The position numbers and the translations under genes were made by a program. The notes below the pieces were generated by a model. That model saw only the letters and a program-made list of their open reading frames with translations. It was not told where the DNA came from and ran no database searches. A stretch of 64,000 nucleotides of DNA, taken from contig CANEGO010000002.1 in the NCBI GenBank assembly GCA_947427095.1, positions 99,810-163,809 on the forward strand, given 5' to 3'. This document shows, piece after piece, positions 2,405 through 44,372 of the stretch. Numbering within the stretch: position 1 is the stretch's first letter; the number at the start of each line of letters is the position of its first letter. Source of the stretch: an uncultured Clostridium sp. (lineage in GTDB: Bacteria > Bacillota_I > Bacilli_A > RF39 > UBA660).

Positions 2405-2431
2405 TCAAAAAAGACCGCTTCAAGTCTTTTA
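2405..2431 (-). terminator. Rho-independent terminator after the N/Q-rich gene, just upstream of the rpiB RBS
   Basis: Hairpin AAAAGAC-N8-GTCTTTT followed by a U-run on the minus strand. Confidence 0.45.
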
Positions 2432-3677: not shown

Positions 3678-4363
3678 TTAATTTCGCTAAACTTTCTAGG
3701 ATATTTAACACTTGTTCTCACAAGTTTTTCTATTTTTATTAAAGTTCTTGTCCCAGCATTATAAGGTAGTTCAAAAATAATGGTATCTTTTATAACTCCT
3801 CCTAGCGTTTTTACCGCTTTTTCGGCACTTTTTATCTCTTCTTTTGCTTCTGCTTTCATTGAAATAAAGTATCCGTCAGTTTTTACAAACGGAATACATA
3901 ATTCCGATAAAGTATTTAAATTTGCTACTGCTCTTGATGTCACTAAATCAAAACTTTCTCTTTTATTTATAACATATTCTTCTGCTCTAGCATGAATAGC
4001 TTCTATATCCTTTAGATTTAATTTTTCTATAACAGATTTTAAGAACGTAATTCTTTTATTTAATGAATCTACTAAAGTTACTTTTAAATTAGGAAATACT
4101 ATTTTTAATACTAATCCTGGAAAGCCAGCACCGGTTCCTATATCAAGTAACGTTTGATCATCTAATTTTATAGTTTTAACAAGCGTTAAACTATCATAAA
4201 AATGTTTTAAATATACTTCGTTTTCCTCGGTTATTCTAGTTAAATTAGTATGACTATTATAGTCTATTAACATTTTATAATAAGTATCTAAATCACTTAA
4301 CTGTTTATTGGTTATGTCTATGTTTAAATCTTTTAAAGCTCTTATAAACTCTTCTTTATTCAT
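3662..4363 (-). CDS. rsmG: 16S rRNA m7G527 methyltransferase RsmG (GidB)
   Basis: Full-length match to the RsmG pattern (..DIGTGAGFPGLVLKIVFP..). It overlaps mnmG by 8 nt. Confidence 0.9.
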   Translation of the reverse strand: MNKEEFIRALKDLNIDITNKQLSDLDTYYKMLIDYNSHTNLTRITEENEVYLKHFYDSLTLVKTIKLDDQTLLDIGTGAGFPGLVLKIVFPNLKVTLVDSLNKRITFLKSVIEKLNLKDIEAIHARAEEYVINKRESFDLVTSRAVANLNTLSELCIPFVKTDGYFISMKAEAKEEIKSAEKAVKTLGGVIKDTIIFELPYNAGTRTLIKIEKLVRTSVKYPRKFSEIKKKPL

Positions 4364-6179: not shown

Positions 6180-6789
6180 CTTCTTTTAAATTAACTTCGT
6201 AAATAAACTGTTCTTCTTTTTCTGTTTTAGCTTTATCGAAATAAATTGGCTCTTCGTAAATTTTTTTAAAACCTAAACGTTCATAATATTTATAGTTACA
6301 ATCATCATCAGTTACTATTTTTAGTTTTTTCATGTTATCTTTTCTTGCCAAATTAAAAATCATTTTTAATAGTTCGGATCCATAACCATTTCCTTGATAT
6401 TTTTTATCAACTATGAAAATAATAATATCTCCATCATATTTATTATCAAATTTAGATTCTATTTTATCATACAATTCATTATATCTTGCGAAAGCTTTTT
6501 TATCTTTTATAAAAGGGCCTTTTACTATTAAAGATTTTAAAAATTTATAGAATTTTTTTTTAACCAAAAATTTTTTGGAGTCTCTCTTTTCATATGCACA
6601 AAAACCAATTACTTTATTATCTACTTTTTTTATTATCATCCGCTCTGATTTTGATAATATATCAAATAATAAATAATAAGCACACCAAGGGCCAGTTGTT
6701 TTTGATTCTTCCTCCCCCAATTCCCACTGGTTATGTAAAATATTCATCATTTGCCTTAATTCTTTAATTTTCAAATAAATCACCAACAT
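6172..6789 (-). CDS. GNAT-family N-acetyltransferase (205 aa)
   Basis: Acetyl-CoA-binding motif A (VDKKYQGNGYGSELLKMIF) and YYERLGFKK. The stop overlaps the mnmG start by 8 nt, so it is co-transcribed with mnmG. Confidence 0.7.
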   Translation of the reverse strand: MLVIYLKIKELRQMMNILHNQWELGEEESKTTGPWCAYYLLFDILSKSERMIIKKVDNKVIGFCAYEKRDSKKFLVKKKFYKFLKSLIVKGPFIKDKKAFARYNELYDKIESKFDNKYDGDIIIFIVDKKYQGNGYGSELLKMIFNLARKDNMKKLKIVTDDDCNYKYYERLGFKKIYEEPIYFDKAKTEKEEQFIYEVNLKEGE

Positions 6790-6824: not shown

Positions 6825-7763
6825 TTAATTCCTAACTCTTTCCATGTTATTTAATTTATAACTTATTAAATAAATCCCATAATCATTTACGTATTGCATT
6901 ATAAAATTATCATTATTTTTTGATATAATTAATCCAATTGTTTTATTATGATATTTCATCTTTAAAGTTTTATCTACTATTTTTCTATATAGCTGTATTT
7001 GGCTAATATCTTTATAATTAGTGTTATTAAGTTTTAATTCTACTGGTATATAACAATTTAGATTGGTATTGAATAACATCATATCAACATAAAAGGGCTT
7101 ATCTAGATACGTTAATTTATACTCACTTCCTGCATATAAAAATCCTGTTCCTAGCTGCAAAAAGAAATCTCTTAACTCTTCTAATATATATTTTTTAAGC
7201 ATCTTTTCACTTAAATTTTTATTGTTTAGAGCTTTTATAATAATTGGATCTAATAACATATCTTTTAAACTATAATCTAATTCTTTATTTGTATCTATTA
7301 GTTTTATATTATTTTTATCTGCATAATATAATCTATCAAAGGCTTTTTCTTTTATTAATTTAATTAGTTCTCTCTTAGACAAATTATTTAAAATACATTG
7401 ATTTATATAATAATTTCTTTCATTTTCATTTTTTATTGGAAGCAGATAACGCCAATGGGTCCAAGTTATGTTAAATTGGTGGCCCGCTGGGCCACCTTTT
7501 TGAGTAACTATTAAAAATTGCCTCATTCTCTTTAAATTAGATATATCATAACCCTTACCATATTGTTCTACTAACTTTTTAGACCAATTCTTAATAAGTT
7601 CATTGCCATATTTAGCCCTTGTTTCTCCACCTTGTGCTTCTACTAATAACTTACCAATTTCATAATAAGCTTCTAATGTATCTTTATTAGATTGTAATCT
7701 TCTTACTCCTTCATTTATTTCTTTATTTTCTATTACGTTTTTTATTTTCTTATAATAATCCAT
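6825..7763 (-). CDS. DUF1016/YhcG-like protein with a C-terminal PD-(D/E)XK nuclease motif
   Basis: N-terminal YhcG-like region and a C-terminal ..FYVDMMLF..IPVELKL.. (D...ExK) motif. It has its own TATAAT -10 and GGAG RBS downstream of the mnmE terminator. Confidence 0.6.
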   Translation of the reverse strand: MDYYKKIKNVIENKEINEGVRRLQSNKDTLEAYYEIGKLLVEAQGGETRAKYGNELIKNWSKKLVEQYGKGYDISNLKRMRQFLIVTQKGGPAGHQFNITWTHWRYLLPIKNENERNYYINQCILNNLSKRELIKLIKEKAFDRLYYADKNNIKLIDTNKELDYSLKDMLLDPIIIKALNNKNLSEKMLKKYILEELRDFFLQLGTGFLYAGSEYKLTYLDKPFYVDMMLFNTNLNCYIPVELKLNNTNYKDISQIQLYRKIVDKTLKMKYHNKTIGLIISKNNDNFIMQYVNDYGIYLISYKLNNMERVRN

Positions 7764-13344: not shown

Positions 13345-13581
13345 TTTTCCACATTTGAGAAAAATAATTTTTTTATTACAAAAAAGATAACCACATACTT
13401 TTCCACAGATTTACACTGTTTTTTTCTATATTTCTTAATAATTACAATAATAATTAACAGTTTGTGGATAACTTTTACATGTTTACTATTTTATTAATAA
13501 TTTATTTTTTGGGGAAAAGTGCATTTTGTCGAAATTTGTTGAAAAATAAGAATTATAATTGTGGAAAACTCTTGTGGAAAA
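13345..13581. promoter_or_regulatory. oriC upstream DnaA-box cluster with the dnaA promoter region (5 boxes)
   Basis: TTTTCCACA at 13345 and 13399, a perfect TGTGGATAA at 13463, and TGTGGAAAA at 13560 and 13573, all immediately upstream of dnaA. Confidence 0.8.
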
Positions 13582-13672
13582 AATATAATTTATCAATATA
13601 CGTTGTTTTTCAACATTTTTTTTGGTAAAATAGATGTAAATAACTCGTTTTATAGGGGGAAAGGAGGTTATT

Positions 13673-15022
13673 ATGAACATAGATAATCTATGGGATAATT
13701 TCCTAGAAAAAATTAAACCAAGAATATCTTCATTATCTTATGATACTTGGTTTAAGAATACAAAACTAGTATCACTAGATAATAATGTTGCAAAAATACT
13801 TGTAGATTCGCCACTTCAAAAGAAAAGTTTACAAGAAACCTGGTATCAAACGATATCCGATGTATTTAGTGAAATAACGAATACAAGTTTCGATTTTGAA
13901 TTTGTTTTTGAAGATGAGGTAAGCATAAATACGAATATTCCTGTGGAAAACATCGGAGTTCCTTTAAATACACCAGAAAAATCAAATCTAAATCCTAAAT
14001 ATACGTTTGATTCTTTTATAACAGGTGATAGTAATAAGTTTGCTTACATGGCTGCGGTTTCAGTTGCAGAAAATCCAGGTAAAACTTATAATCCATTATT
14101 TTTATATGGAAATAGTGGACTAGGTAAAACTCATTTAATGCATGCAATAGGAAACTTTATTATCGAAAATTCAAATAAAAAAGTATTATATGTAACAAGT
14201 GAACAATTTATATCAGATTTTCTTAACCTTAATAAAAAGGATGAAACTGGTACAAATTTTAACTACATAGATAGCTTTAAGAACAAATATCGTGGAGTAG
14301 ACGTACTAATAATTGATGATATTCAGTTTTTAGGAGGCGCTACACAAACACAGCAAGAGTTTTTTAACACTTTTAATAACTTGTATGACGATAATAAACA
14401 AATTATAATCTCATCTGACAGATCACCGGATGACTTAAAAAAATTAGAAGATAGATTAAGAACCAGATTTAATTGGGGTCTTAGTGTAAATATTTATCCA
14501 CCTGATTATGAAATGAGAGTTCAAATTCTTAGAAAAAAAATAATTGGACAAAACATGGATGGTACGATAAATGATGATGTTATTGCTTATATTGCTAATA
14601 ATTGTGAATCGGACGTAAGGCAACTAGAGGGTGCACTAACTAGGGTTATTGCTTATGCAACGATGTTTAATACAAGAGATATTAATTTAACGCTAGCGAT
14701 TGATGCACTAAAAGATTATTTATCAAAATCTTCGTTTACTAAAAATAATATTCAAAAAATTCAGCAAGTTGTATCAGAATATTATAATATAACGGTGGAA
14801 GATTTAAAATCCAAAAAAAGAAAGGCAAGTATAGCGTTTCCAAGGCAAGTAGCGATATATCTATGTAGAACAATGACGGATGAGTCTTTTCCAAAAATTG
14901 GAATACAATTCGGTGGAAGAGACCATTCAACTGTTATACATTCGGTTGATAAAATTGATAATGAAATAAAAACTAATCCTCAATTTAAAACAATAATAGA
15001 TGCATTAAAAAGTAAAATATAA
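13673..15022 (+). CDS. dnaA: Chromosomal replication initiator DnaA
   Basis: Full-length DnaA with the AAA+ Walker A GNSGLGKTHL and the C-terminal DNA-binding domain. A GGAGG RBS is present. Confidence 0.97.
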   Translation: MNIDNLWDNFLEKIKPRISSLSYDTWFKNTKLVSLDNNVAKILVDSPLQKKSLQETWYQTISDVFSEITNTSFDFEFVFEDEVSINTNIPVENIGVPLNTPEKSNLNPKYTFDSFITGDSNKFAYMAAVSVAENPGKTYNPLFLYGNSGLGKTHLMHAIGNFIIENSNKKVLYVTSEQFISDFLNLNKKDETGTNFNYIDSFKNKYRGVDVLIIDDIQFLGGATQTQQEFFNTFNNLYDDNKQIIISSDRSPDDLKKLEDRLRTRFNWGLSVNIYPPDYEMRVQILRKKIIGQNMDGTINDDVIAYIANNCESDVRQLEGALTRVIAYATMFNTRDINLTLAIDALKDYLSKSSFTKNNIQKIQQVVSEYYNITVEDLKSKKRKASIAFPRQVAIYLCRTMTDESFPKIGIQFGGRDHSTVIHSVDKIDNEIKTNPQFKTIIDALKSKI

Positions 15023-15027
15023 TAAAC

Positions 15028-15160
15028 TGTGGATTAAATTAAATTTTTCAACTTAATTTGTGGATTAAAAATATTAGTTTTTCTTTTATTTAATAACAAA
15101 TATTTAACTTTTCCACATTATCCACAGTAATAATAAAAATACATATATATATATAAGGAG
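15028..15160. promoter_or_regulatory. oriC downstream DnaA-box cluster plus an AT-rich DNA-unwinding element between dnaA and dnaN
   Basis: TGTGGATTA at 15028 and 15059, TTTTCCACA at 15109, a perfect TTATCCACA at 15118, then a (TA)7 tract at 15143-15156. Confidence 0.8.
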
Positions 15161-16352: not shown

Positions 16353-17375
16353 ATGCCTAAGATTTTAGTGGCTGATTTATTTGGTACAATAATTCCAAAT
16401 AATATATTGAATGCTAATTATTTATATGTAAACATAGATAAATATAAAGATATTAATGAAATTTGTTATGATAAAAATCAGCATGAGTATTTGATTGAAA
16501 AATTATGTTTACAATGTGCAAATGATTTAAAAAAATTTTTAAACGATGGTAATGAACTTATAATAGCGTCGGATTTATCGGCTCACGAATTAAATTTAAC
16601 TTTTATTTATGAGGAGATTATAGAAAAAATATTAAAGTATTGTAATAAAAATTTTACTTTATATATGGTAACAAAGGGCGGCGCAGCTAGTTTCAACTTA
16701 GAGGTGTTAAAATCTCATATTACTGAAGAATATAGTGAACATGGTATTGATTATATTGTGTTTGAAGGTTATAAAATAGGTCTTATTGATAGAAAGGAAG
16801 ACATATTTAGAGTAGTTGAAAGTAAATTTAACTTACAAGAATGTGAATTATATTCAATTGGAAATGATTACAAAGATATTCCTATGCTTGTTAGATGTAT
16901 TGAGTTAGGTGGAAAAAGTTCTTTATTAAACTATAATTTATATTCTAACGAACTTCTTTCAAGAACTACGTTAGATAAAGCTATATGTGAAAGGATTCAA
17001 AGAGAAAATCATATATTATTAGAAAAAGAGTTGTTAAAAGACCATCCTGGTTTTAGTTTGTTAGATAAGTATAAATATTTAATGGAAAGAAGGCTAACTT
17101 CAGAATATAATAGATGGTATGAAAAAAGAAAAGAGGAGCTTTATCAAGAAGTAAGAAAAGGTAATATTACGTTAGAACAATTAATTAAAGAAAAATTAAT
17201 TTTTGGACTTTGTCAAACTGCTATTAATCATTGTTTAGAAAGGAAAACATTCATCGAAAATAATTTAGATAAAATAGATATGTATTCTACTTTTAGAGAT
17301 TATTATAATAAAGTACTTAATTGTGATTCAAAAGAAGAAATAAAAAAATCACCCGTAAAATTATTAAAACCTTAA
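16353..17375 (+). CDS. HAD-superfamily (Cof-like IIB) protein with a degenerate motif I and a roughly 130-aa charged helical C-terminal extension
   Basis: Motif IV SIGNDYKDIPML is present and motif I reads ILVADLFGTII (DxD changed to DxF). It has its own TATAAT promoter and an AAAGGAGG RBS. Confidence 0.55.
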   Translation: MPKILVADLFGTIIPNNILNANYLYVNIDKYKDINEICYDKNQHEYLIEKLCLQCANDLKKFLNDGNELIIASDLSAHELNLTFIYEEIIEKILKYCNKNFTLYMVTKGGAASFNLEVLKSHITEEYSEHGIDYIVFEGYKIGLIDRKEDIFRVVESKFNLQECELYSIGNDYKDIPMLVRCIELGGKSSLLNYNLYSNELLSRTTLDKAICERIQRENHILLEKELLKDHPGFSLLDKYKYLMERRLTSEYNRWYEKRKEELYQEVRKGNITLEQLIKEKLIFGLCQTAINHCLERKTFIENNLDKIDMYSTFRDYYNKVLNCDSKEEIKKSPVKLLKP

Positions 17376-17407
17376 GAAAAAAGAAGAATTTAATCTTCTT
17401 TTTTTCA
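17376..17407 (+). terminator. Terminator after the HAD-like gene
   Basis: AAAAAAAGAAG-N8-CTTCTTTTTTT hairpin. Confidence 0.55.
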
Positions 17408-17433
17408 TTATCTGACAATTTTTTTAAAAATAC

Positions 17434-17442
17434 TGTGGATAA
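17434..17442. promoter_or_regulatory. Perfect DnaA box (TGTGGATAA) overlapping the predicted -10 region of the comK-like gene
   Basis: Exact reverse complement of TTATCCACA, 33 nt upstream of the start codon. Confidence 0.4.
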
Positions 17443-17474
17443 TATAGTCAAATATTTTTAAAGGAGGGTTTTGT

Positions 17475-17936
17475 ATGAAAAATTATGAAATTAATAGGCA
17501 AACGTTAGCAATAATATCTTGTGGAAAGGAAAAATCAAAAATAATAGAAGAAAATAATGAGTTTTTTATTGATCAATCTTCTACTAAAATAATTGATGAT
17601 AGTTGTAGGTTTTTTGGTAGTTCATACGATGGGAGACTTAATGGGACTAAAAGTATTTTAGGTGTTTCACACAAAGCACCCATTATTATTGAAGAAAGTT
17701 CTGGTATAATATTTTTTCCAACCACATCTCCTAGATTAGATTGTTGTTCATGGATTTCTTTAAACAATATAGAAGAATACTATAAATTATATGGTGATAC
17801 AATAATAAAATTTAGTTGTGGAAAAAAAATAAAGTTAGAATTATCGTATGGAATAATTGATAATCAAATATTAAGAGCAACGAGATTAGAGGCATTAATA
17901 GCAAAAAGAACTTATAATTTAAAAAAAATAGCTTAA
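17475..17936 (+). CDS. comK: ComK-family competence transcription factor homologue (153 aa)
   Basis: DDSCRFFGSSYDGR and HKAPIIIEESSGIIFFPTTS align with B. subtilis ComK DRSCRFFGSSYAGR and HKPPIMVDPSNQIFLFPTLS. An AAAGGAGGG RBS is present. Confidence 0.7.
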   Translation: MKNYEINRQTLAIISCGKEKSKIIEENNEFFIDQSSTKIIDDSCRFFGSSYDGRLNGTKSILGVSHKAPIIIEESSGIIFFPTTSPRLDCCSWISLNNIEEYYKLYGDTIIKFSCGKKIKLELSYGIIDNQILRATRLEALIAKRTYNLKKIA

Positions 17937-23597: not shown

Positions 23598-23623
23598 TTT
23601 AATGTTTCACGTGAAACATTAAT
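23598..23623. repeat. Perfect 24-bp palindrome TTAATGTTTCACGTGAAACATTAA (copy 1), between the gyrA stop and the ffs promoter
   Basis: Exact self-complementarity read directly from the sequence. Confidence 0.9.
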
Positions 23624-23671
23624 TAAGTATAATAATTCTTGATTATTTATTAATAATATAATAAAATATAA

Positions 23672-23750
23672 ATGCACAACGGAAATGCTAGAATCAGGTC
23701 AGGGCCGAGAGGCAGCAGCCTTAATAACCTCTTTTCGTGTGTGCTTTTTT
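23672..23750 (+). ncRNA. ffs: Signal recognition particle RNA, short 4.5S-type (ffs/scRNA)
   Basis: The domain IV core CAGGUCAGGGCCGAGAGGCAGCAGCC matches the conserved SRP RNA motif (E. coli CAGGUCAGGUCCGGAAGGAAGCAGCC). The 5' GCACA and 3' UGUGC ends can pair. A TATAAT -10 sits at 23657-62 and a U-run at the 3' end. Its position before dnaX mirrors B. subtilis scr. Confidence 0.6.
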
Positions 23751-23762
23751 AATTTAAAATAT

Positions 23763-23780
23763 ATGTTTCACGTGAAACAT
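23763..23780. repeat. Perfect 18-bp palindrome ATGTTTCACGTGAAACAT (copy 2), in the tadA promoter/5'UTR just upstream of the RBS
   Basis: Exact palindrome, 6 nt upstream of the GGAG RBS. Confidence 0.9.
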
Positions 23781-23794
23781 TATAGGAGAATAAA

Positions 23795-24205
23795 ATGCAA
23801 AAAAAATTTATAGAACTGGCAATAAAGGAAGCAGTAAAAGCATTAAAAAAGGGAGAAGTGCCAGTTGGAGCTATAATTATAAAAAATGGTAAAATTATTG
23901 CTAAAGCACATAATTTGGTAGAGAAGCGAAGAAATGCTACATTTCATGCAGAAATTTTAGCTATGACTAAAGCATACGGAAAAACAAAAAATTGGAGACT
24001 GAATGACTGTGAAATGTATGTTACATTGGAGCCTTGTAAGATGTGTGCTGCCGCAATAGAACTAAGTAGGATTAAAAAGGTCTATTATTTGTTACCTAAA
24101 GATAAAGAAAATATTTTTATTAATAAAGAAAAATATATATTTTTAAAAGATTATAAAAAAGATTCCTTAGATTTGATACATAGTTTTTTTAAAAAAATAA
24201 GATAA
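23795..24205 (+). CDS. tadA: tRNA-specific adenosine deaminase TadA
   Basis: Zinc-binding HAE (FHAEILAM) and PCxxC (EPCKMCAAAI) motifs. Confidence 0.85.
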   Translation: MQKKFIELAIKEAVKALKKGEVPVGAIIIKNGKIIAKAHNLVEKRRNATFHAEILAMTKAYGKTKNWRLNDCEMYVTLEPCKMCAAAIELSRIKKVYYLLPKDKENIFINKEKYIFLKDYKKDSLDLIHSFFKKIR

Positions 24206-24225
24206 TGTTTCACGTGAAACATTAT
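24202..24225. repeat. Perfect 24-bp palindrome ATAATGTTTCACGTGAAACATTAT (copy 3), overlapping the tadA stop codon and upstream of the dnaX promoter
   Basis: Exact palindrome. It may also act as an intrinsic terminator hairpin, since a U-rich tract follows it. Confidence 0.9.
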
Positions 24226-24288
24226 CTTTTAGTTTAAAAATAATAGTTAAAATGATATAATATAAAAGTAAATGAAAGGAGAGATTGC

Positions 24289-25932
24289 ATGGCATATCAA
24301 ACGTTATATAGAAAATATCGCCCAAAGAGTTTTAAACTAGTATATGGCCAAGATACTATAGTAAGAACTTTAAAAAATGTAATTAAAAATAATAAGTTAA
24401 GTCATGCATATCTGTTTACTGGGCCAAGAGGGACCGGAAAAACAAGTAGTGCTAAACTTTTTGCAAAAGCTATAAATTGTTTAAACAATCAAAATGGAGA
24501 TGCATGTAATGAATGCGATAATTGCAACTCATTTAATAATAATAAAAATCCGGATATAATTGAAATTGATGCTGCTTCAAATAATGGCGTGGATGAAATA
24601 AGAGAAATAAAAAATAAGATTAGTTTAGTTCCATCAATGTCAAAGTATAAAGTATATATAATTGATGAGGTACATATGCTTTCTATAGGTGCGTTTAATG
24701 CCCTGTTAAAAACTTTGGAAGAGCCACCAGAATATGTTATTTTTATATTGGCGACTACAGAGCCTCAAAAATTACCCGTAACAGTAATTTCACGATGCCA
24801 AAGATTCGATTTTAAAAACATATCTAAGCAAAATATGAAAGAATGCCTTAAAAATATAATCATGGGGGAAAATATAAATATTAGCGATGATGCATTAAAT
24901 GAAATTATAGATAATTCTAACGGTGGAATGAGAGATGCCATAGGAATGTTAGATCAAGCTTTTGCTTTTTGTGAGAAAGAAATCACTTTAAATGATATTC
25001 AAGAATTATCTGGTAGTATTTCAACTTCAGAAATATCTTCTTTCTTTAAAAATTTAAAGTTAAAATCATACAATGAAATTATAGATATGATAAAAAATTG
25101 GTCAAATAAAGGAAAGGATTTTTTTGTGATATCTCAAAAACTAATTAACATTACTAGAAATGCTATTTTGTATAAGAAAAATGTTGATATAGGAGAAACA
25201 AGAATAAATAATTTAAGTGTATTTGATGAATATAATGAATTAAATTTATATTTAATAATTGATAATTTGACTGAAACACTAAATAAATTACAATTTAGTT
25301 ATCAAAAGGAGTTAATATTTGAAATACAAATGATTAAATTAATTGATCAATTCAATGTTCCACGTGAAACATTGAATAAAAAAATAACAGAGCAATCAAA
25401 GCCTATCATAAAAAATGATGTTCCACGTGGAACATTGAATGATAATACATCTGTAGTTGAAAAATTAGATCAATTTATTTTGAAATTAAAAGAAATTAGA
25501 ATAAATAATATATTAAAAGAGTCTTCACGCAATGAATTAAAATATATAGATGATTTATGGGAAAATATAAATGATTATTTGGTGGAAGAAAAATATAAAA
25601 AATGCGCGGGCATACTATTACAATGTAAACCTGTTGCAGCTTCAAAAAATGGAATTATAATTACACTGCCAGCACAGTCATTGTTAGTGGAGATTGAAAA
25701 AAATTATGACTTTAGCAAAGAAATGATAAAAGAAATATTAAATTCAAAGTATAAAATTGTATATATAACAGATGAGTATTGGAAAAGTATAAGACCTAAA
25801 TATGTGGAATTAGTAAAAAATAATGAATTAGAGATAAAGGATGAACTACAATTGCTTTCTAAAATAAATAAAATTAAAAGCGAAACGTCTGTTAATGAAT
25901 TTGATGAATTAATTGAAATGGAGGAAAAATAA
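24289..25932 (+). CDS. dnaX: DNA polymerase III subunit tau/gamma
   Basis: Walker A GPRGTGKTS, a Zn module CNECDNC, and tau C-terminal domains. Extended -10 TGATATAAT and GGAG RBS. Confidence 0.95.
   Translation: MAYQTLYRKYRPKSFKLVYGQDTIVRTLKNVIKNNKLSHAYLFTGPRGTGKTSSAKLFAKAINCLNNQNGDACNECDNCNSFNNNKNPDIIEIDAASNNGVDEIREIKNKISLVPSMSKYKVYIIDEVHMLSIGAFNALLKTLEEPPEYVIFILATTEPQKLPVTVISRCQRFDFKNISKQNMKECLKNIIMGENINISDDALNEIIDNSNGGMRDAIGMLDQAFAFCEKEITLNDIQELSGSISTSEISSFFKNLKLKSYNEIIDMIKNWSNKGKDFFVISQKLINITRNAILYKKNVDIGETRINNLSVFDEYNELNLYLIIDNLTETLNKLQFSYQKELIFEIQMIKLIDQFNVPRETLNKKITEQSKPIIKNDVPRGTLNDNTSVVEKLDQFILKLKEIRINNILKESSRNELKYIDDLWENINDYLVEEKYKKCAGILLQCKPVAASKNGIIITLPAQSLLVEIEKNYDFSKEMIKEILNSKYKIVYITDEYWKSIRPKYVELVKNNELEIKDELQLLSKINKIKSETSVNEFDELIEMEEK
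25354..25375. repeat. Near-perfect palindrome CAATGTTCCACGTGAAACATTG (copy 4), in frame inside dnaX
   Basis: One mismatch from a perfect palindrome. It encodes ..NVPRETLN.. in the dnaX linker. Confidence 0.85.
25418..25435. repeat. Perfect 18-bp palindrome ATGTTCCACGTGGAACAT (copy 5), in frame inside dnaX
   Basis: Exact palindrome. It encodes ..DVPRGTLN.., 60 nt after copy 4. Confidence 0.9.
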
Positions 25933-35757: not shown

Positions 35758-36576
35758 ATGAGTGTTAAAGATATTTTAAATAAAAATGGATTTATTTTTA
35801 AGAAAAAGTTTGGTCAAAACTTTTTGCTTGATAATAATATTTTAAATAATATTGCTGATTTAGGTAATATAACAAAAGATACTCTTGTTATAGAGGTTGG
35901 CGTAGGAGCAGCTGCTTTAACTAAAAAATTAAGCCTTAAAGCAAAGCTAGTATTGGGTTATGAGATAGATATAAATTTGAAAAAACCGCTTGATGAAATA
36001 CTTACGGGCTATGAAAATGTTAATATAATTTATGATGACTTTTTGAATCGTGACGTAAAAAAAGATTTAAGTAAGTATGAATACAAAAACATTATAGTAG
36101 TCGCAAATCTTCCGTATTATATAACGACTCCAATAATAACTAAATTTATTGAAGAAAAAATAAACGTAGAAAAGATAGTAGTTATGGTGCAAAACGAGGT
36201 GGCTGACCGATTTTGTGCAAAAACTGGAACTAAATCATATAACTCTTTAACTATTTTTTTGAATTATTATTTTGATATTAAAAAGGCTTTTACCGTTTCA
36301 AGAAATGTATTTTATCCAAAACCAAACGTTGATTCTGCTGTTGTAGTTTTTACAAAAAAAGAGAAAAAATTAAAGTTAAATGATGAAGCCTATTTCTTTA
36401 GACTTGTAAAAGCAGCATTTACTCAAAAAAGAAAAACTTTGAAAAATAACTTATCAGACTACGACTTAGATAAAATTAATGAGGTATTAAAAATATCAGG
36501 TAAAGATATAACTAAAAGAGCAGAATGTATTACAATAGAAGAATTTGCTAAAATTTCAAACGAATTAACCAGATGA
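35758..36576 (+). CDS. rsmA: 16S rRNA (adenine1518/1519-N6)-dimethyltransferase RsmA/KsgA
   Basis: The ATG is preceded by AAGAGGAG; the track ORF starts upstream at a TTG. Motifs FGQNFL and ..VVANLPYYITTPII... Confidence 0.9.
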   Translation: MSVKDILNKNGFIFKKKFGQNFLLDNNILNNIADLGNITKDTLVIEVGVGAAALTKKLSLKAKLVLGYEIDINLKKPLDEILTGYENVNIIYDDFLNRDVKKDLSKYEYKNIIVVANLPYYITTPIITKFIEEKINVEKIVVMVQNEVADRFCAKTGTKSYNSLTIFLNYYFDIKKAFTVSRNVFYPKPNVDSAVVVFTKKEKKLKLNDEAYFFRLVKAAFTQKRKTLKNNLSDYDLDKINEVLKISGKDITKRAECITIEEFAKISNELTR

Positions 36577-36617
36577 TAGAATGTCTGGTTTTTTCTTTGC
36601 ATATATTTTATTGGGTG

Positions 36618-37370
36618 ATGATATTGTTTAAAGTAGGAGATTTAGTCACTAGGATATCACATGATAATGATGTTGTATTTAAGATAGAAAAAATTGATTC
36701 AGGAATTGCTTATTTGAAGGGTGTAAATGTAAGACTGTGCGCCGATAGCAGTGTAAGTGACCTAATTTTGGTTGATTCAAAGAATAATGAAGAAGACCGA
36801 ATATTTTACGAAAAATTAGAGACGATAAGGAATTTTGAAAGAAGTGATTATTTTTATATTCCTGGTAAAATTCTACATGTGGATGGGGATAGAGAATATT
36901 TAAATAGGTGTTTAGATTTTTATAAAAAAGCTAATGTTTTGGCTTTTGGAGTTTACTCACCGGAAAGTGAAATGGCACAAAATATCGAAAAGTATTTAGA
37001 TGATATTAACCCTGATATTGTTGTTATAACTGGTCATGATTCGGAAATAAAAAAGAACTCAAAGTATTTTTCAGAAGCTGTAAAGGCTTGCCGTAAGTAC
37101 CAAAGGGATTATGATAAATTAATAATAATTGCTGGTGCTTGTCAATCGGATTATGAACACCTTATAAAAGCGGGAGCCAATTTCGCGTCAAGCCCAAAGA
37201 GGATAAACATTCATGCGCTTGATCCTGCAATTATTGCTTTATCCCTAAGTCTGTCTGATAAAAATAAAAATGTTGATTTACTAGCGCTTTTAGAAAAAAC
37301 GAGCAACGGTAAGGACGGTATTGGTGGTGTTAATACAAGGGGTGTTATGACTACCGGGTATCCTAGGTAA
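36618..37370 (+). CDS. yabG: Sporulation-specific protease YabG
   Basis: PGKILHVDGD, IVVITGHD and IIAGACQSDYEHLIKAGANFASSPKRINIHALDP align closely with B. subtilis YabG. The position between ksgA and veg is conserved. The start was chosen at MILFKVGDLV; the track ORF begins at 36573. Confidence 0.75.
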   Translation: MILFKVGDLVTRISHDNDVVFKIEKIDSGIAYLKGVNVRLCADSSVSDLILVDSKNNEEDRIFYEKLETIRNFERSDYFYIPGKILHVDGDREYLNRCLDFYKKANVLAFGVYSPESEMAQNIEKYLDDINPDIVVITGHDSEIKKNSKYFSEAVKACRKYQRDYDKLIIIAGACQSDYEHLIKAGANFASSPKRINIHALDPAIIALSLSLSDKNKNVDLLALLEKTSNGKDGIGGVNTRGVMTTGYPR

Positions 37371-37586: not shown

Positions 37587-37675
37587 TATATGAACTTTTT
37601 TATTTGTGTTTATTGATTTTTATCCCCATTTGTGGTTAAATTAAAATGTATAAACTAAAATGGGAGGACTATACT

Positions 37676-40600
37676 ATGAACATGGCAAAGTCGAATATTA
37701 AAAGCAGATTAAGTGATTGGTTTCTTATTCAGAGAATTAGAATAACTAATTTTATGAAGGAACATAAGTATGTTTCGGCGTTTATTGGTGTTTTTTTAAT
37801 GTCTTCCTTAATTGCTTTCATAGTTTACGCGGTTGATGCAAACAAGTATGATGGTCAGGTTTCAGTTACGGCTAAAGTTGAGCAAAAAAACGTATCTTCA
37901 AGCGAGGAAATTACACATATTAAAAGCTTTAGCAACATCATATATGATATATCATATGGATTATCAATATCAGACTTACCTGCCAACGAAACGGTTGTAA
38001 GGGAAAAAGTAATAATTGAAGCAGAATTTAACGAAGGTATTGATGCTGAATGGATATTCCAGGACGAGGATGCAACTTATGAATTGTCAGAAGATAAAAG
38101 AAAGTTAACGGTAACTATTTATCAAACTAAGGTTGGGGAACTTAACAGCAAGCAATTGTATTTAAAAGCAAAAAATATACAAAATGGAACAGTTATAAAT
38201 ACGAATATTAGAATAAAGGAATCTACCGCCGCAGATTTTACTGATTTAGGTCAAAAAAGTGTAGTAATAGAAAGTGAAAAAGTTGATTTAACTACTAAAA
38301 TAATATCTGGCACAGCTTATAAATCTTCTGACTATCAAGAAGGACGATTAGCTCCTTTTGGTATATTAGTTGGATTTGATAAAAGTAATCTTAAAACAGA
38401 GAATAAAGATAGTTTAGAGGGGCTTTATTTTGATCCTAATTTGAGTTTAATATTAGAAGCAACTCAGACTGTAAATGGAGTTAATTCTCAAATAGAATTA
38501 AAAAATGATAGTAATAAATTTTTTGGATTATATGATAAAGGATCTAATTTATTGCCATTGATGCCACATCATATAAATAATTATCAATATTATTCAGTAT
38601 ATAATTCCGGTAAGGTTACAAACTTAATCAAGTCAAAAAGTGGGGTTTCCGGTGTTGTTACTGAAAATAAAAATCCAGATTTATATTTAATAGGTGATAA
38701 AACCATGAATTTAGAGCTTGGAGAAAAATACGAAGAATATGGTGTGTCAACAACAAATGGTGGTTCAGCTATTTGCAAAACAAGCAGTTCTTCCTGCACC
38801 CGTGTTATAAAAGATAAAGATGGAAATGAAATCGCTGATAATGACGTTACCAAATCGGTTGGTAATTATATTGTTAGCTATGAATATAATACGGCAAGTG
38901 GTGTTACTAAGGTTAACAGAAATATCAAAGTTGCTGAAAAAACAACGGCTACTTTAAATGATGATGTGTATGAACTAAACGGTAATAAAATCATTACTTT
39001 AGTAAAAGGTACAGCTTATTCTGAAAGTGGAATAATAAAAAATGGTGCTAAATATTATAATTATGAAAGTATCATAACAAAAGATGGAGATGTTATTGAA
39101 AAAATAGACGCAACCATAGTTGGTACCTATGTAATAACTTATAAAATTACTGATGCTACTAGTCAGACGCCAGAAACTGGTGAAGAGACCCTGGCAGAGG
39201 AATCTACCATTAAAGAAGTTTCGTTAACAAGGACGGTTAAAGTAGTTGAAGGCTTGGAGTATTTGAAAGCACAAACGATTACTTCCAGCACTATTTATGC
39301 TCCGTCAGATGGTTCATTTACTAACCCTTTAATAAATCTTGATGGCAAGGATATAGAATGTACAAGCGATAGTGGATGTGAGGTTAAATATTATGATCCA
39401 ATTAGTAAAAAAGAAACAACTATTGATAAACAAAAAGCTGGAACATATAATGCTATATATAAAATAACCGATAAAAATGGATTTGAACTACAAACGGGAA
39501 ATGTTATTAATATTCAAACTAAATATGATTTTAATATAGAGGGAATAAAATCTGATGGAACTATTAATTTATATGGAGACGATTTTGTTGCATTAGGTTC
39601 TTATTTTGTAAATGCGGCATCTCCTAGAGCTCTTGAAGCAAGTGGTGATATTGCAGTTAATCTAAGAATTGGTGATGTAGTATCAGAAAATGTTATTAAT
39701 AAAGTTTATTCGGCAGGAACGAAAACTAATCATTTAACATTTAATACCGATACCTCTGGAATGTTAACAGAGTTGCCAAATGACACTTATTTAGCTTATG
39801 GTGAAGAAGTTATTTTAAGATCGGTATTTAATTATTCTAGTGATGGCGATGATAATATTGGAACTTTAACAACTAGGATTCCGATTGGTACGGCTGTTTC
39901 ATCAGCAAATAATCCGACCGCTCCGTTTACTATGGTTGAGTATAATAATAGTGTGGAGAATGGTGAACCCTATTACGTAAATGAGGAATTAAAAGATAAA
40001 GTAAAAGTTAGCTATTATGCATGTGAAATGGAAGAATCTAAGACAACCTGTATTAGTGAAACCGGAGCAACTTATGAAACTTTTGATACATTAAATGACG
40101 CTTTGAAGAAAAATGATAAATTAAGATTAGCTTATTTAACATACGTGGTTAATGACGTAAGACCTGGCTCTGAAATTGATTTTAGGATTAGATTAGTTGC
40201 TAACGTTGGAAATCATGATGGAGTACTTACAATGACATCAACATCTACATTTGATGAAAAGCAAGAAAATGGAACTAGTCAAAGTAAAAATATATCTGAT
40301 AATAGTACTATAAACGTTACCGCGTTTAAGGCAAGGACTAAAGTGTTTATTGGTAATAGTGAACAAGACGTCATAATAAATGCCGCTAATGTAAATAGCT
40401 CAACGTGGACTATTTATCCGACAATAAGTTTACCAGCAGAGTTAGTAAATACTAATATAGCGGCTATAGATGAACTTTCTAATATTACAATCGTTGTTAC
40501 TTTGCCTGATGGAATTAATTATTTATATAATGAAAATTATGATATTCCTTCAGTAAGTAATAATGGCAAAACCCTAACTTATGTTTTAAAGGGGAAACAC

Positions 40601-42250
40601 GTTAATGAGTGGATTGATCCGATAACGTTTGAGGCTAGTTATGATATAGATATTCCTTCTGGAACAAGAAAGGAAGTTAACGTTTTAATACAAGCAACGT
40701 CAACCAGTGGAATATCTGATGCATCTAGTAAAAACTTAAGAACAACAACGAGAGCAGTGACATATCAAAATAACGAAGTAATAACATATGCACAGTATAC
40801 TCCATATACAGCAATATCTAAAGAGACAAGTTTTAATGTAAGCACTAAATTATACAATAATGATAGTAAAGAAGTAACGCATTCAAATTTAGATATTGTA
40901 ACGCTACTTCCGTATAATGATGTAAGTAACGAAAAAAATAAATATACAGGCACATATACTATATCTAATTTACCTAAGGGAGCTTTATGTACAACTAGTA
41001 TTCCATCCGTAATAAGTGACTCTAAAAAACTTTTATCTGGTGATGAAATAACATGGGAAGATTGTTCTAAATATCAATCTGAGAACTATGTTGGCATTAC
41101 GGCCATTAGGGTTAATGGTATAAGTCTTGCTGCTAGAAAAACTTATGAACAAAGTATAACAATTAATCCAATAGGTAATAAAACAGATGATTCATATCAA
41201 ATTAATTCGTATTTAATCATGGATTCTGATGGTAAAAGGATTGTAAAAAATATTAAAGCTTTAAATATTGATGTTATTAGTAAAAGAATAACTGGTACGG
41301 TTTGGGAAGACTTTGACGCCAACGGTATTATGGATGCACAAGAAAAAAAGGTGTCAGGGGTTACTTTAAAATTATACAATGCGGAAACTGACGAACTTGT
41401 AAAAACTACTACTTCTGATGAAAAGGGTAAATATAGTTTATCTGATTTGATTCCGGGCACCTATTATGTAGTGGCAGAGTATAATACGGCAAAATATGGT
41501 TTATCACCATATCAAGTAACACTAGATAAATCTGTTAGTTCCTCGTTTAATGCAACTAAGGTTAACGAAGATAATATTGACTCTAAAAATAGTAATACAA
41601 AAGATGATATAGTATCTTCCGAATCGACAAAAGAAGATGTAGAATGCACTGGTGATGAGTGTACAGATCTTGACCCCTCTGATAAACTGGAAGAAACTCA
41701 GCCTGTTATTAGGACCGAAAATATAGAAATAAATAGTAATACTAGAATGGTTAGTAATGTTAATCTTGGTCTTGCACTTAGAAAGACATATTCTGTTAAA
41801 TTGACAAAGTATGTAACAAAGGCAATTACGACTAATAATCTTGGTGTATCAACAATAAAAGATTATGGTAATGTTTCTTTGGCAAAATTGGACGTAAAGG
41901 ATATAAATAATTTAGGTATTAAGGTTGTTTATACTTTAGAATTAGAAAATACTGGTTATTATCCTGGTTATATTTATTCTGTGAAGGATTATATTCCAGA
42001 TGGGATGAAGTTTAATGAAAATTATGAAGAAAATAAAGGTTGGGTAATGACTGAATATGGTTATTTGGAAAATAACACTTTATTTGATCAGTTGGTTGCT
42101 GGGGGAGAAAAGAAATATCTTACAGTCGCCTTTGATATCGTAAGAAAAGAAGCTGGCTCTTTTGTTAACTATGCGGCAGTGGATGATGAAGATTTACAAA
42201 TTTTAGTTGTTGCTGGAAATGAAGGAGAAGAAGGTGATAGTAATGAATAA
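37676..42250 (+). CDS. Giant N-terminally membrane-anchored surface protein (about 1525 aa) with a C-terminal CnaB/SdrD-B-type domain and a DUF11 domain
   Basis: Start set at the ATG 8 nt after GGGAGG; the track starts at 37646. A TM helix (VSAFIGVFLMSSLIAFIVYAV) follows a short cytoplasmic tail. ITGTVWEDFDANGIMDAQEKKVSGVTLKLYNAETDELVKTTTSDEKGKYSLSDLIPGTYYV is a classic CnaB/SdrD B repeat. The terminal VVYTLELENTGYYPGYIYSVKDYIPDGMKF is DUF11-like. There is no C-terminal sorting signal. Confidence 0.7.
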   Translation: MNMAKSNIKSRLSDWFLIQRIRITNFMKEHKYVSAFIGVFLMSSLIAFIVYAVDANKYDGQVSVTAKVEQKNVSSSEEITHIKSFSNIIYDISYGLSISDLPANETVVREKVIIEAEFNEGIDAEWIFQDEDATYELSEDKRKLTVTIYQTKVGELNSKQLYLKAKNIQNGTVINTNIRIKESTAADFTDLGQKSVVIESEKVDLTTKIISGTAYKSSDYQEGRLAPFGILVGFDKSNLKTENKDSLEGLYFDPNLSLILEATQTVNGVNSQIELKNDSNKFFGLYDKGSNLLPLMPHHINNYQYYSVYNSGKVTNLIKSKSGVSGVVTENKNPDLYLIGDKTMNLELGEKYEEYGVSTTNGGSAICKTSSSSCTRVIKDKDGNEIADNDVTKSVGNYIVSYEYNTASGVTKVNRNIKVAEKTTATLNDDVYELNGNKIITLVKGTAYSESGIIKNGAKYYNYESIITKDGDVIEKIDATIVGTYVITYKITDATSQTPETGEETLAEESTIKEVSLTRTVKVVEGLEYLKAQTITSSTIYAPSDGSFTNPLINLDGKDIECTSDSGCEVKYYDPISKKETTIDKQKAGTYNAIYKITDKNGFELQTGNVINIQTKYDFNIEGIKSDGTINLYGDDFVALGSYFVNAASPRALEASGDIAVNLRIGDVVSENVINKVYSAGTKTNHLTFNTDTSGMLTELPNDTYLAYGEEVILRSVFNYSSDGDDNIGTLTTRIPIGTAVSSANNPTAPFTMVEYNNSVENGEPYYVNEELKDKVKVSYYACEMEESKTTCISETGATYETFDTLNDALKKNDKLRLAYLTYVVNDVRPGSEIDFRIRLVANVGNHDGVLTMTSTSTFDEKQENGTSQSKNISDNSTINVTAFKARTKVFIGNSEQDVIINAANVNSSTWTIYPTISLPAELVNTNIAAIDELSNITIVVTLPDGINYLYNENYDIPSVSNNGKTLTYVLKGKHVNEWIDPITFEASYDIDIPSGTRKEVNVLIQATSTSGISDASSKNLRTTTRAVTYQNNEVITYAQYTPYTAISKETSFNVSTKLYNNDSKEVTHSNLDIVTLLPYNDVSNEKNKYTGTYTISNLPKGALCTTSIPSVISDSKKLLSGDEITWEDCSKYQSENYVGITAIRVNGISLAARKTYEQSITINPIGNKTDDSYQINSYLIMDSDGKRIVKNIKALNIDVISKRITGTVWEDFDANGIMDAQEKKVSGVTLKLYNAETDELVKTTTSDEKGKYSLSDLIPGTYYVVAEYNTAKYGLSPYQVTLDKSVSSSFNATKVNEDNIDSKNSNTKDDIVSSESTKEDVECTGDECTDLDPSDKLEETQPVIRTENIEINSNTRMVSNVNLGLALRKTYSVKLTKYVTKAITTNNLGVSTIKDYGNVSLAKLDVKDINNLGIKVVYTLELENTGYYPGYIYSVKDYIPDGMKFNENYEENKGWVMTEYGYLENNTLFDQLVAGGEKKYLTVAFDIVRKEAGSFVNYAAVDDEDLQILVVAGNEGEEGDSNE

Positions 42251-44372
42251 AAAAGTTAAAAATATTATATTAGTTATTCTTCTTTCCATTACTACCTTCT
42301 TTAGCTTTAACAACATTTTATTTGCTAAAACAGGGCAAATACACCCTCATAGTAATACGAATTATAAAAATGCAGTATATCGAATGAATGGTGTTAATAA
42401 AGATAAGAACATAGGTTGGGTTGGAATTTATAATATAAATGGGCAACATGCTTATTGTATAGAATTAGGAACACCTCTATCTCCTGGGTATGATCCTAAT
42501 AATAACGTTGATTTTAACGATTATTCATATGGTTTTTTCAAGAATTTAAGTGCCTCAGAACGAGCTGCTAGAAGTACTAGAATCGCTTATATATTAACGT
42601 TTGCTGAAAATATTGGTACTGTTCCGGCAGAGAGTGCCATGAATAAAACTCAAGCGTTAAGAATTTATGCTGCTCAAGGTTTAATTTGGGAAACTATGAC
42701 TGGGGAGAGAACTTCTTTTAATAATTTGTGGCCAGAAAATCATCAGGGAACGGCTTGTAGTTTTTACGATGTTGTTCATAGCAGAAATGGTTGTAATAAG
42801 GGTAATGATATGAGCGTGATCTCCCAAGAGTATGATCGTATTGTAAAAGCAATCCAATCTACGTTTTTAGATAGTAATCCGGGGGAATCTGGTAAAACTT
42901 TTAAACCAGGTGGTAGTGAAAACAAAGTGGCTCTTTCTTGGGATGGTTCAAAATATACTTTAAGAATTAATGATTATAATTTTTCGTATTGGGAAGTAAT
43001 CAAAACCGATGGTCTTCAAGTAGAAAAAGGTTCAAATTATATTACTATTTCAAGTAAAAATCCAATTGATGAAAATGCTGCAAAGCAGGTTGGTATTCAG
43101 ATTATTAATAAAAATAATAGTTCTAATATCGCGAAGGCATATTATCATGATAGTTTGCAAGATCTTACTACTATTGTAGGTACTACATTACAAAGATATA
43201 TTAAGGTATACACACCAAAATATCAGTTAAAAATCACTAAAAAAGCTTCTTTAGATGGAAAGGTTTTAAGTGGAGCAAAATTCAATATTTGTTCAAATAG
43301 TTCCTGTACAAAAATATTAGGTACGGTAACAACGGATAAAAATGGAACTGCAACATTTCAAAGTATCCCATCACCAGGTACTTATTATGTAAAGGAAATA
43401 GTTGCTCCGCCGGGGTATGAACTTGATTCAACACCACGTGCCGTTACTGTTTCATCTTCTAGTATCGCGGGATCATCAAGTTATGGGGTGATAACTTTAA
43501 CTGATGCGAATAAAGTATTTAACTTAACAAAAAAGACAGTTGATGAAAATGGAAACGTTATTGATTTAGATGATGGATGTGGAACAGATAATTATACTGG
43601 TCCAGAATTTGAGATTAAAGAAAACGGAAGTAGTCTTTATTTTAAAGAAATAAAACCAGGTGAATATGATGTTTCAAGTAAGGATGCTGATGGTGCAACA
43701 ACAAAGCTTAGAACTTGCAAAGGAAAATTCAAAGTTTATACTTTGCCAAAGTGTAATTACACCATATCGGAAACTAAAGCTCCAGAAGGACTTACTTTGC
43801 CATCCGAACCAACAAAAGCAATTAACGTTTGTGGTTCTGGGAAAAACGTATCATTTACCAATGGATTTGCAGGTTTAGAATTTCAAAAAAAAGATGAGGA
43901 TGGTAACTTTGTAGAAGGAGGAAAATTTTCTCTCCAAAGAAGGGTAAATAATGTTTATCGTGATATTTTACTAAAACAAGTAGAAGATGGTAGTTATGTT
44001 TACGATGCTAATCTAAAAGAAGAAGACGAAGGAGCTACTTATATAATTCTTACTAATAAAGGTATAGCACGCATTTCAAAATTAGCACCTGGTGAATACA
44101 GGGTGGTAGAAAAAGAGGCTCCAGAAGGATTTGAACTTATTCAAGATAAGGATTCCAAATCTTTAGTTACCATAAAAGATAGTGATAAAGAAGGATATTA
44201 TTTAGTAGAAATGATTGACCAAAAGGTTAGGAAAAATGGAAGTAAATCCTCCGCTGAACTTGTAGTTACGATCACAACTGGTAGAAAGGTTCCAAATTAT
44301 ATACTTATTATTTCTGCTTTAGTTATTATGCTTGTAATAGCTATATTGATAAGAAAAAAAATAAAAAAATAG
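42243..44372 (+). CDS. Secreted adhesin/pilin-like protein (about 709 aa) with a possible thioester-type N-domain, two SpaA-like prealbumin-fold domains, and a C-terminal TM helix with a KR-tail cell-wall-anchor-like signal
   Basis: The ATG overlaps the upstream stop (ATGAATAA), with a GAAGGAG RBS. Signal peptide MNKKVKNIILVILLSITTFFSFNNILFA. YCIELGTP and AAQGLIWE resemble the Cys and TQxA(I/V)W Gln motifs of thioester domains. GTYYVKEIVAPPGYELDSTPRAVTV and KLAPGEYRVVEKEAPEGFELIQ are SpaA-like. The C-terminus is ..VVTITTGRKVPNYILIISALVIMLVIAILIRKKIKK. Confidence 0.65.
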   Translation: MNKKVKNIILVILLSITTFFSFNNILFAKTGQIHPHSNTNYKNAVYRMNGVNKDKNIGWVGIYNINGQHAYCIELGTPLSPGYDPNNNVDFNDYSYGFFKNLSASERAARSTRIAYILTFAENIGTVPAESAMNKTQALRIYAAQGLIWETMTGERTSFNNLWPENHQGTACSFYDVVHSRNGCNKGNDMSVISQEYDRIVKAIQSTFLDSNPGESGKTFKPGGSENKVALSWDGSKYTLRINDYNFSYWEVIKTDGLQVEKGSNYITISSKNPIDENAAKQVGIQIINKNNSSNIAKAYYHDSLQDLTTIVGTTLQRYIKVYTPKYQLKITKKASLDGKVLSGAKFNICSNSSCTKILGTVTTDKNGTATFQSIPSPGTYYVKEIVAPPGYELDSTPRAVTVSSSSIAGSSSYGVITLTDANKVFNLTKKTVDENGNVIDLDDGCGTDNYTGPEFEIKENGSSLYFKEIKPGEYDVSSKDADGATTKLRTCKGKFKVYTLPKCNYTISETKAPEGLTLPSEPTKAINVCGSGKNVSFTNGFAGLEFQKKDEDGNFVEGGKFSLQRRVNNVYRDILLKQVEDGSYVYDANLKEEDEGATYIILTNKGIARISKLAPGEYRVVEKEAPEGFELIQDKDSKSLVTIKDSDKEGYYLVEMIDQKVRKNGSKSSAELVVTITTGRKVPNYILIISALVIMLVIAILIRKKIKK

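Follow-up and report, generated by a model that had tools for sequence, protein, structure and literature searches.

Two short palindromes within the dnaX gene, which encodes the tau subunit of DNA polymerase III, of an uncultured Clostridium sp. are very probably parS sites, the centromere-like chromosomal sequences bound by ParB, and form part of an origin-proximal cluster of five such sites. The window analysed here is a stretch of 64,000 nucleotides (64 kb) from this organism (GenBank assembly GCA_947427095.1, contig CANEGO010000002.1, positions 99,810 to 163,809 of the forward strand). An initial annotation, made from the sequence alone, had drawn attention to the palindromes without recognising them. 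Through their match to TGTTNCACGTGAAACA, the parS consensus for Bacillus subtilis, Corynebacterium and many other bacteria and phyla (PMC7022226), the sequences in question, TGTTCCACGTGAAACA and TGTTCCACGTGGAACA, are canonical ParB-binding parS, the latter being the form given for Pseudomonas (PMC7022226). The sites carry the parS sequence, lie near the replication origin and are constrained at the level of DNA; the exact, multiply conserved consensus strongly suggests that ParB would bind at all five, with the downstream effects that binding would bring.

When up to one mismatch to TGTTNCACGTGAAACA was allowed, exactly five sites were found in the window, four of them perfect (sites 1-4) and the fifth with a single mismatch. 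All five fall between positions 23603 and 25434, a span of 1.8 kb, and no further site at this threshold occurs anywhere else in the 64 kb. With a 14-mer and up to two mismatches, five occurrences were obtained against 0.03 expected, and none of 100 shuffles of the window reached that number.

The 547-amino-acid open reading frame (ORF) that holds sites 4 and 5 is DnaX: it scores 520 bits against NCBIfam PRK05563 (cut-off 400), also matches TIGR02397, and contains the Pfam DNA_pol3_delta2 and lid domains. As read from the letters of the window, the first dnaX string is CAATGTTCCACGTGAAACATTG (25354-25375) and the second is ATGTTCCACGTGGAACAT (25417-25434). A near-palindrome of 28 bp, ATTCAATGTTCCACGTGAAACATTGAAT, surrounds site 4, and the second string is perfectly palindromic throughout its 18 bp. 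The codons concerned are CAA TTC AAT GTT CCA CGT GAA ACA TTG AAT AAA at site 4 and AAA AAT GAT GTT CCA CGT GGA ACA TTG AAT GAT at site 5. The initial annotation was right on the perfection of the second palindrome, on the presence of two in-frame copies within the ORF at 24289..25932, and on the peptides that they encode, FNVPRETLNKK (at V357) and NDVPRGTLNDN (at V378). The separation of 60 nt that it gave is roughly correct; more exactly, the two 16-bp cores start 63 nt, or 21 codons, apart, in frame, and the quoted strings are separated by 41 nt. The positions of all five sites and of the features around them are listed in the table.

Table. Features of the parS cluster and of the origin region, in window coordinates
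Feature	Position	Strand	Remarks
393-amino-acid N/Q/S-rich protein	2429-3610	-	beside rsmG; rpiB, spoIID and an M23 peptidase gene next
oriC region	13345..15126		DnaA-box clusters 13345-13581 and 15028-15126 around dnaA (13673-15022)
parS site 1	23603..23618		TGTTTCACGTGAAACA; 3' of gyrA stop codon and terminator, 5' of the signal recognition particle (SRP) RNA gene
Small SRP RNA gene (ffs)	23666..23757	+	Rfam RF00169; parS sites 1 and 2 on either side
parS site 2	23764..23779		TGTTTCACGTGAAACA; between SRP RNA gene and tadA
Putative tadA (tRNA adenosine deaminase)	23795..24205	+	136-amino-acid ORF, assigned from sequence and position; between parS sites 2 and 3
parS site 3	24206..24221		TGTTTCACGTGAAACA; one base past tadA stop codon, 83 bp before dnaX start
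dnaX (DNA polymerase III tau subunit)	24289..25932	+	547 amino acids; hosts parS sites 4 and 5
parS site 4	25356..25371		TGTTCCACGTGAAACA; in dnaX, read (N)VPRET(L), V357; 0 mismatches to TGTTNCACGTGAAACA
Linker coding sequence, DnaX residues 357-387	25357..25449	+	length-variable, predicted disordered; both in-gene parS sites
parS site 5	25419..25434		TGTTCCACGTGGAACA; in dnaX, read (D)VPRGT(L), V378; 1 mismatch; perfect palindrome

The cluster adjoins the replication origin, which is marked by dnaA, dnaN, the DnaA-box clusters and a reversal in the sign of the GC skew about 14 kb into the window. The genes to one side of oriC are rnpA, yidC, jag, mnmE, mnmG and rsmG, those to the other dnaA, dnaN, recF, gyrB and gyrA. 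The parS sites begin just past gyrA and lie 8.5-10.3 kb to the right of oriC.

The nature of the constraint on the in-gene sites was assessed by comparison with other genomes. A scan of a genome collection returned 80 dnaX loci, and the in-gene sites were compared across eight genomes, namely the window and representatives of the seven closest species (L001-L007, with DnaX 58-72% identical), which are metagenome-assembled genomes (MAGs) labelled uncultured Bacilli and Clostridium sp. CAG:594. Each of the seven has two or three parS sites within dnaX and two to seven just upstream, at conserved offsets. All 19 in-gene sites of the eight genomes read exactly xAT GTT YCA CGT GRA ACA Txx, with flanking codons that vary freely. 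Given the codon usage of this genome, in which arginine is encoded by AGA in 60% of cases and by CGT in 19%, the chance of VPRET being written in those codons is 0.014 per site. The 19 in-gene sites and 32 extragenic ones (51 sites in the eight genomes) share a single 18-bp logo, ATGTTYCACGTGRAACAT, on either side of which the sequence is unconstrained. The initial annotation had taken the palindrome to imply DNA- or RNA-level selection, as opposed to selection for the peptide, and the complete lack of synonymous variation in the 19 sites agrees with that expectation. It had named synonymous changes in orthologues that destroy the symmetry as an argument to the contrary; the opposite was found, the orthologues retaining the DNA palindrome.

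The protein sequences tell the same story from the other side. Every one of the 120 close DnaX homologues (63-100% identity) carries the motif V[PS]R[EG]T, as one copy in 15 of them, two in 78 and three in 27. Its only substitutions, P/S and E/G, correspond to C/T at position 5 of the site, where the consensus has N, and to A/G at the palindromic partner position 12; the P/S polymorphism is seen even within the species itself (P0001 versus P0008). The residue preceding the motif is nearly always Asn or Asp, sometimes Tyr or Ser, so that its codon ends in T, usually AT, while the residue following is nearly always Leu or Ser, occasionally Tyr, Phe or Ile, so that its codon usually starts with T. 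With these bases of the neighbouring codons the palindrome reaches 18 bp. In homologues that have lost the second copy (P0016, P0026, P0040 and P0042) an unrelated peptide stands in its place, and hence the motif is dispensable to the DnaX protein. What is under selection is the DNA, not the peptide or the RNA, and the VPR(E/G)T repeat is a passive by-product, present because parS DNA is read in frame.

The part of the protein that receives these sites is the linker at residues 357-387. AlphaFold2 assigns it pLDDT (predicted local distance difference test) values below 50 and no secondary structure, between a helix at 340-355, which is the end of the clamp-loader collar, and another at 386-410; the alignment of homologues is length-variable exactly at the linker. 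Both lines of evidence bear out the placement of the palindromes in a variable linker by the initial annotation. Of the three ways in which parS can be translated, one contains a stop codon (TGT TYC ACG TGA), another would give x-F-H-V-K/E-x and the remaining one gives the hydrophilic V-P/S-R-E/G-T, and it is this last frame that is used by 19 of 19 in-gene sites. We propose that the disordered tau linker tolerates in-frame insertions of parS and that the cluster has in this way spread into dnaX in this uncultured family of low-GC Bacilli, the single frame in use yielding a peptide that is hydrophilic and presumably harmless, (N/D)V(P/S)R(E/G)T(L/S). The number of copies in dnaX, from one to three, changes by in-frame tandem duplication. 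In Clostridium sp. CAG:594 (L003) the three in-gene sites lie in a 48-nt in-frame repeat of 2.6 copies with 90% identity. The two in-gene copies of the window are not called as a tandem repeat by Tandem Repeats Finder because their flanks have diverged. The suggestion that an inserted repeat had been domesticated came close, since the linker does carry extra copies of a genomic repeat, which multiplies by in-frame tandem duplication. Outside the close homologues, V[PS]RET also appears in the linker region of four of 149 other DnaX cluster representatives (clustering at 50%), against about 0.1 expected by chance on our own estimate. These four (P0123, P0135, P0168 and P0195) are approximately 42-50% identical to the DnaX of the window, and their protein sequences suggest that the tau linkers of further lineages may also have captured parS.

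Current understanding of the system is that ParB nucleates on parS, binds cytidine triphosphate (CTP), closes into a sliding clamp and spreads to neighbouring DNA (PMC7333895, PMC7022226). New origins are individualised and segregated by the ParB-parS complex, which loads the SMC condensin and interacts with ParA (PMC7333895, PMC7022226). By this model, ParB dimers would nucleate on each of the 16-bp sites, close into clamps and slide to the flanks, and the resulting complex would recruit SMC condensin and, where present, ParA, organising and segregating newly replicated origins.

Several results weigh against the assignment of the sites as parS, most of them concerning ParB itself. A tblastn search with B. 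subtilis Spo0J (its sequence checked against PDB entries 6sdk and 5noc) gave no match in the 64-kb window or in 86 loci, which take in 10 kb to either side of dnaX in 80 relatives. When the 39 larger ORFs of the window were compared with Pfam and NCBIfam, no ParB domain came to light, none was present in the 10 kb that adjoin the window on the left, and no ParB was found in the rsmG neighbourhoods of the same species and of a relative whose RsmG is 78% identical. The place beside rsmG is where noc, soj and spo0J are usually encoded in Firmicutes. In the window, that position is held by an N/Q/S-rich low-complexity protein of 393 amino acids without a Pfam or NCBIfam match, and no parAB genes were found over some 25 kb leftwards of oriC. 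In addition, palindromes this stable also form RNA hairpins and may have a secondary effect at the RNA level. The arrangement of the 393-amino-acid protein with rpiB, spoIID and the M23 peptidase gene is also kept in the relative with 78% RsmG identity (L088, 10750-12045).

A variant of the parS assignment would give the in-gene sites a regulatory role. ParB clamps nucleating on them, or else long-range pairing between the two copies in the mRNA along with the A AAA AAT/TGA context described below, could modulate the amount of tau or yield a truncated gamma-like product, coupling clamp-loader supply to centromere occupancy in this lineage. A related idea is that the lineage uses a relocated or divergent ParB, since the searches of the 64 kb around oriC, of the adjoining 10 kb on its left and of the 10-kb surroundings of dnaX in the 80 relatives revealed none. 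We regard this extension as unlikely.

Less likely still is the proposal that the sites are operators for a local transcription factor of the ffs-tadA-dnaX region, two of them internal to dnaX. Hexamers resembling a promoter (TTCACG...TATAAT at 23606-23633 and 23767-23796) do overlap sites 1 and 2, and a promoter-like element for dnaX follows shortly after site 3, but matches of this kind are near background in such AT-rich DNA (23 versus 16.4 expected). The sequence is moreover identical to the pan-bacterial parS consensus, the cluster adjoins the origin, and the presence of up to 11 tandem copies in relatives is unlike an operator. An internal operator had been among the initial suggestions; it fares poorly against the presence of the identical 18-mer in non-coding DNA upstream, both here and in relatives.

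We consider it very unlikely that the palindromes serve as an element of the dnaX mRNA, whose hairpins would make ribosomes pause, cause transcriptional attenuation or promote a -1 frameshift leading to a truncated, gamma-like DnaX. The two in-gene sites do fold locally (-8.6 and -9.5 kcal/mol) and can pair with one another (-34.8 kcal/mol, z = -6), but any palindrome inevitably gives a hairpin, the local ones here are weak to modest, and the more stable fold is merely the pairing of two palindrome copies. Furthermore, the identical 18-mer occurs three times in non-coding DNA of the window and 32 times outside dnaX in the eight genomes. Attenuation is also opposed by the lack of a sense-strand T-run after the in-gene sites and of any + strand terminator at 25356 or 25419, the terminator scan giving only an antisense match near these sites (25435-25418). 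The pause or attenuation hairpin suggested by the initial annotation is thus not upheld.

For frameshifting, an in-frame A AAA AAT (25410-25416; -1 frame AAA AAA TGA) lies just before site 5 and is also present in L002. Frameshift sites classically need a spacer of some 5-9 nt, but that between this heptamer and the stem is 0-2 nt. There are 15 slippery-type heptamers in this AT-rich dnaX, and in L001 and L003-L007 none is conserved beside parS, being absent or differently placed, L004 having none at all in the linker. Across the eight dnaX orthologues scanned, no conserved slippery-heptamer cassette was found. The natural comparison is with the -1 frameshift cassette of Escherichia coli dnaX, in which A AAA AAG is followed by a 3' stem-loop and the gamma subunit results. 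The two have in common the gene, a similar position just past domain III, an A-rich heptamer, an immediate -1 stop and a nearby stem. They differ in that here the stem begins 0-2 nt after the heptamer, which lacks conservation among orthologues, and the stem is, by its sequence, a probable DNA-binding site that also occurs outside the gene. Since the heptamer is common only to L002 and the spacer is so short, the resemblance to the E. coli gamma site is probably a coincidence in AT-rich DNA. The heptamer is present, but neither a structure spaced by 5-9 nt nor conservation accompanies it, and we do not class the site as a member of the dnaX frameshift cassettes. Nor, with no slippery site conserved at a workable distance, is there support for the earlier idea of an effect on the gamma/tau ratio.

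A selfish palindromic repeat, of the repetitive extragenic palindromic (REP) or miniature inverted-repeat transposable element (MITE) kind, inserted in dnaX by chance, would account for the multiple copies and for the shifts in copy number by tandem duplication. Such an origin is highly improbable, because the copies are confined to one origin-proximal locus of 1.8 kb, with none elsewhere in the 64 kb, and only the 18-bp core is conserved, without element-like flanks; position, too, is conserved across species whose DnaX proteins are only 58-72% identical. Scarcely credible, finally, is a peptide repeat with a function of its own in the tau linker, for instance in docking to another protein, the DNA symmetry being incidental, since the occurrence of [ND]V[PS]R[EG]T in 120 of 120 close homologues is set against zero synonymous variation in 19 sites (at about 1.4% chance per site), P/S and E/G exchanges that are non-conservative for a protein yet single base changes at site positions 5 and 12, outright loss of the second copy in several lineages, the predicted disorder of the region and the finding of the same DNA outside genes.

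The identification of the palindromes as parS finds a parallel in parS359 of B. subtilis, whose 16-mer we take to be TGTTCCACGTGAAACA, identical to in-gene site 4. Like the dnaX sites, parS359 lies near the origin inside a coding sequence (spo0J/parB), where it is read in the same frame to give the peptide NVPRET in an interdomain linker. The Spo0J linker sequence is QNVPRETKKK (PDB 5noc), and the presence of parS359 within spo0J is indicated by the strain genotypes 'parB(mtparS)' and 'parAB(mtparS359)' (PMC8357415). The same solution has thus been reached in another gene. Here, in contrast, the host gene is dnaX and there are two in-gene copies (one to three in relatives) within a tight cluster of five sites in 1.8 kb, whereas the parS sites of B. 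subtilis are dispersed, with eight of ten in the origin domain (PMC7022226). We found no mention of parS inside dnaX in the literature searched.

Clusters of parS are known elsewhere, comprising 3 sites in Mycobacterium, 10 in Corynebacterium, 22 in Myxococcus and 21 in Streptomyces, and are also present in Caulobacter (PMC7022226). As in the window, these arrays from other phyla consist of several near-consensus sites beside oriC, and there they are sites of ParB nucleation and SMC loading (PMC7022226, PMC7333895). The present cluster differs from them in being situated at ffs-tadA-dnaX, not near parAB, and in reaching into an essential replisome gene; in addition, some relatives have strictly periodic tandem arrays with periods of 44-55 bp.

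The distribution of sites was followed further among low-GC Bacilli. Approximately 50 low-GC MAG loci at a greater distance, with DnaX 38-48% identical and the labels Bacilli, Tenericutes, Erysipelotrichaceae or Firmicutes, have between one and 11 parS sites upstream of dnaX, while the gene itself contains none. In each of the seven loci checked for this feature, the SRP RNA gene lies a short way upstream of dnaX and is accompanied by parS sites. From the upstream sites and the neighbouring SRP RNA gene in relatives, ffs-(tadA)-dnaX appears to be the conserved parS cluster locus of the clade, and the entry of the cluster into dnaX marks the family containing the window. Classical Bacillus, Staphylococcus and Lactobacillales loci have no parS site near dnaX; the exception, at a distance, is a single one-mismatch site about 9.4 kb upstream of dnaX in each of two Anoxybacillus loci.

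The periodic arrays lie by the SRP RNA gene, upstream of dnaX, in more distant uncultured Bacilli. Examples are an array of 9.4 copies at 55 bp (L032, 9409-9923) and one of 11 parS copies at 53-54 bp (L036, about 4149-4700); an array of 3.6 copies at 44 bp, with 99% identity, was also seen in L006 (9294-9450). The centromere of the F plasmid, sopC, has 12 tandem 43-bp repeats. Like plasmid centromere arrays, those of the relatives have ParB-type sites head to tail at fixed period, the 55-bp array of L032 being a case in point, and their strict periodicity is a plasmid-like centromere architecture on a chromosome. They differ from the plasmid arrays in being chromosomal and in having the chromosomal parS sequence, and the copies in the window are not strictly periodic.

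Site 3 has an additional property. It lies within a 30-bp perfect palindrome, AAGATAATGTTTCACGTGAAACATTATCTT, followed by a T-run, TTTAGTTT (24199-24236), and this palindrome, directly 3' of the tadA stop codon, scores as an intrinsic terminator (-14.2 kcal/mol, z = -5.6). A T-run also follows the counterpart of site 3 in four relatives (L001, L003, L004 and L006), so that the site may double as the tadA terminator.

In the dnaX sites nature offers a clean case of an essential protein on which a DNA-binding site imposes a conserved peptide: (N/D)V(P/S)R(E/G)T exists in the tau linker only because parS is written there, and the few substitutions that are allowed follow the variable positions of the site. 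In terms of annotation, the cluster places the probable chromosomal centromere at ffs-tadA-dnaX in a poorly known lineage of gut Bacilli, uncultured and of low GC content, that are related to Clostridium sp. CAG:594 and Candidatus Aphodocola. It also calls for caution, as in-gene palindromes may be misread as riboregulators and peptide repeats as functional motifs. The workings of ParABS as known stay unchanged, and the arrangement is not mechanistically new.

Other features of the window concern the origin region and the wider biology of the organism. The usual run dnaA-dnaN-recF-gyrB-gyrA is broken because a 340-amino-acid ORF without a family match and a comK homologue (Pfam ComK, 149 bits) lie between dnaN and recF (16353-17936, + strand); in the relative L088, comK is likewise positioned between dnaN and recF. 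On the other side of oriC, genes for a DUF1016/YhcG PD-(D/E)xK nuclease (6825-7763, - strand) and a GNAT acetyltransferase (6172-6789, - strand) are inserted between mnmE and mnmG, the origin-flanking gene run being otherwise conserved around them. The genome has a GC content of approximately 27%, and the closest large contig is about 1.07 Mb. Despite this, it encodes sporulation genes, namely those for SpoIID, SpoIIID and the YabG protease, and, just to the left of the window, an agr-type quorum-sensing cassette composed of AgrB, a 41-amino-acid peptide, a histidine kinase and a LytTR regulator; the positions for these genes and the cassette together are window 813-1736 and 36573-37370 and L081 12303-16423. 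Lastly, two very large ORFs occupy 37646-44372 on the + strand, one of 1534 amino acids with no NCBIfam match and the other of 721 amino acids with a weak match (52 bits, below the cut-off) to SpaH/EbpB LPXTG-anchored pilins; together these may represent a surface pilus or adhesin locus.

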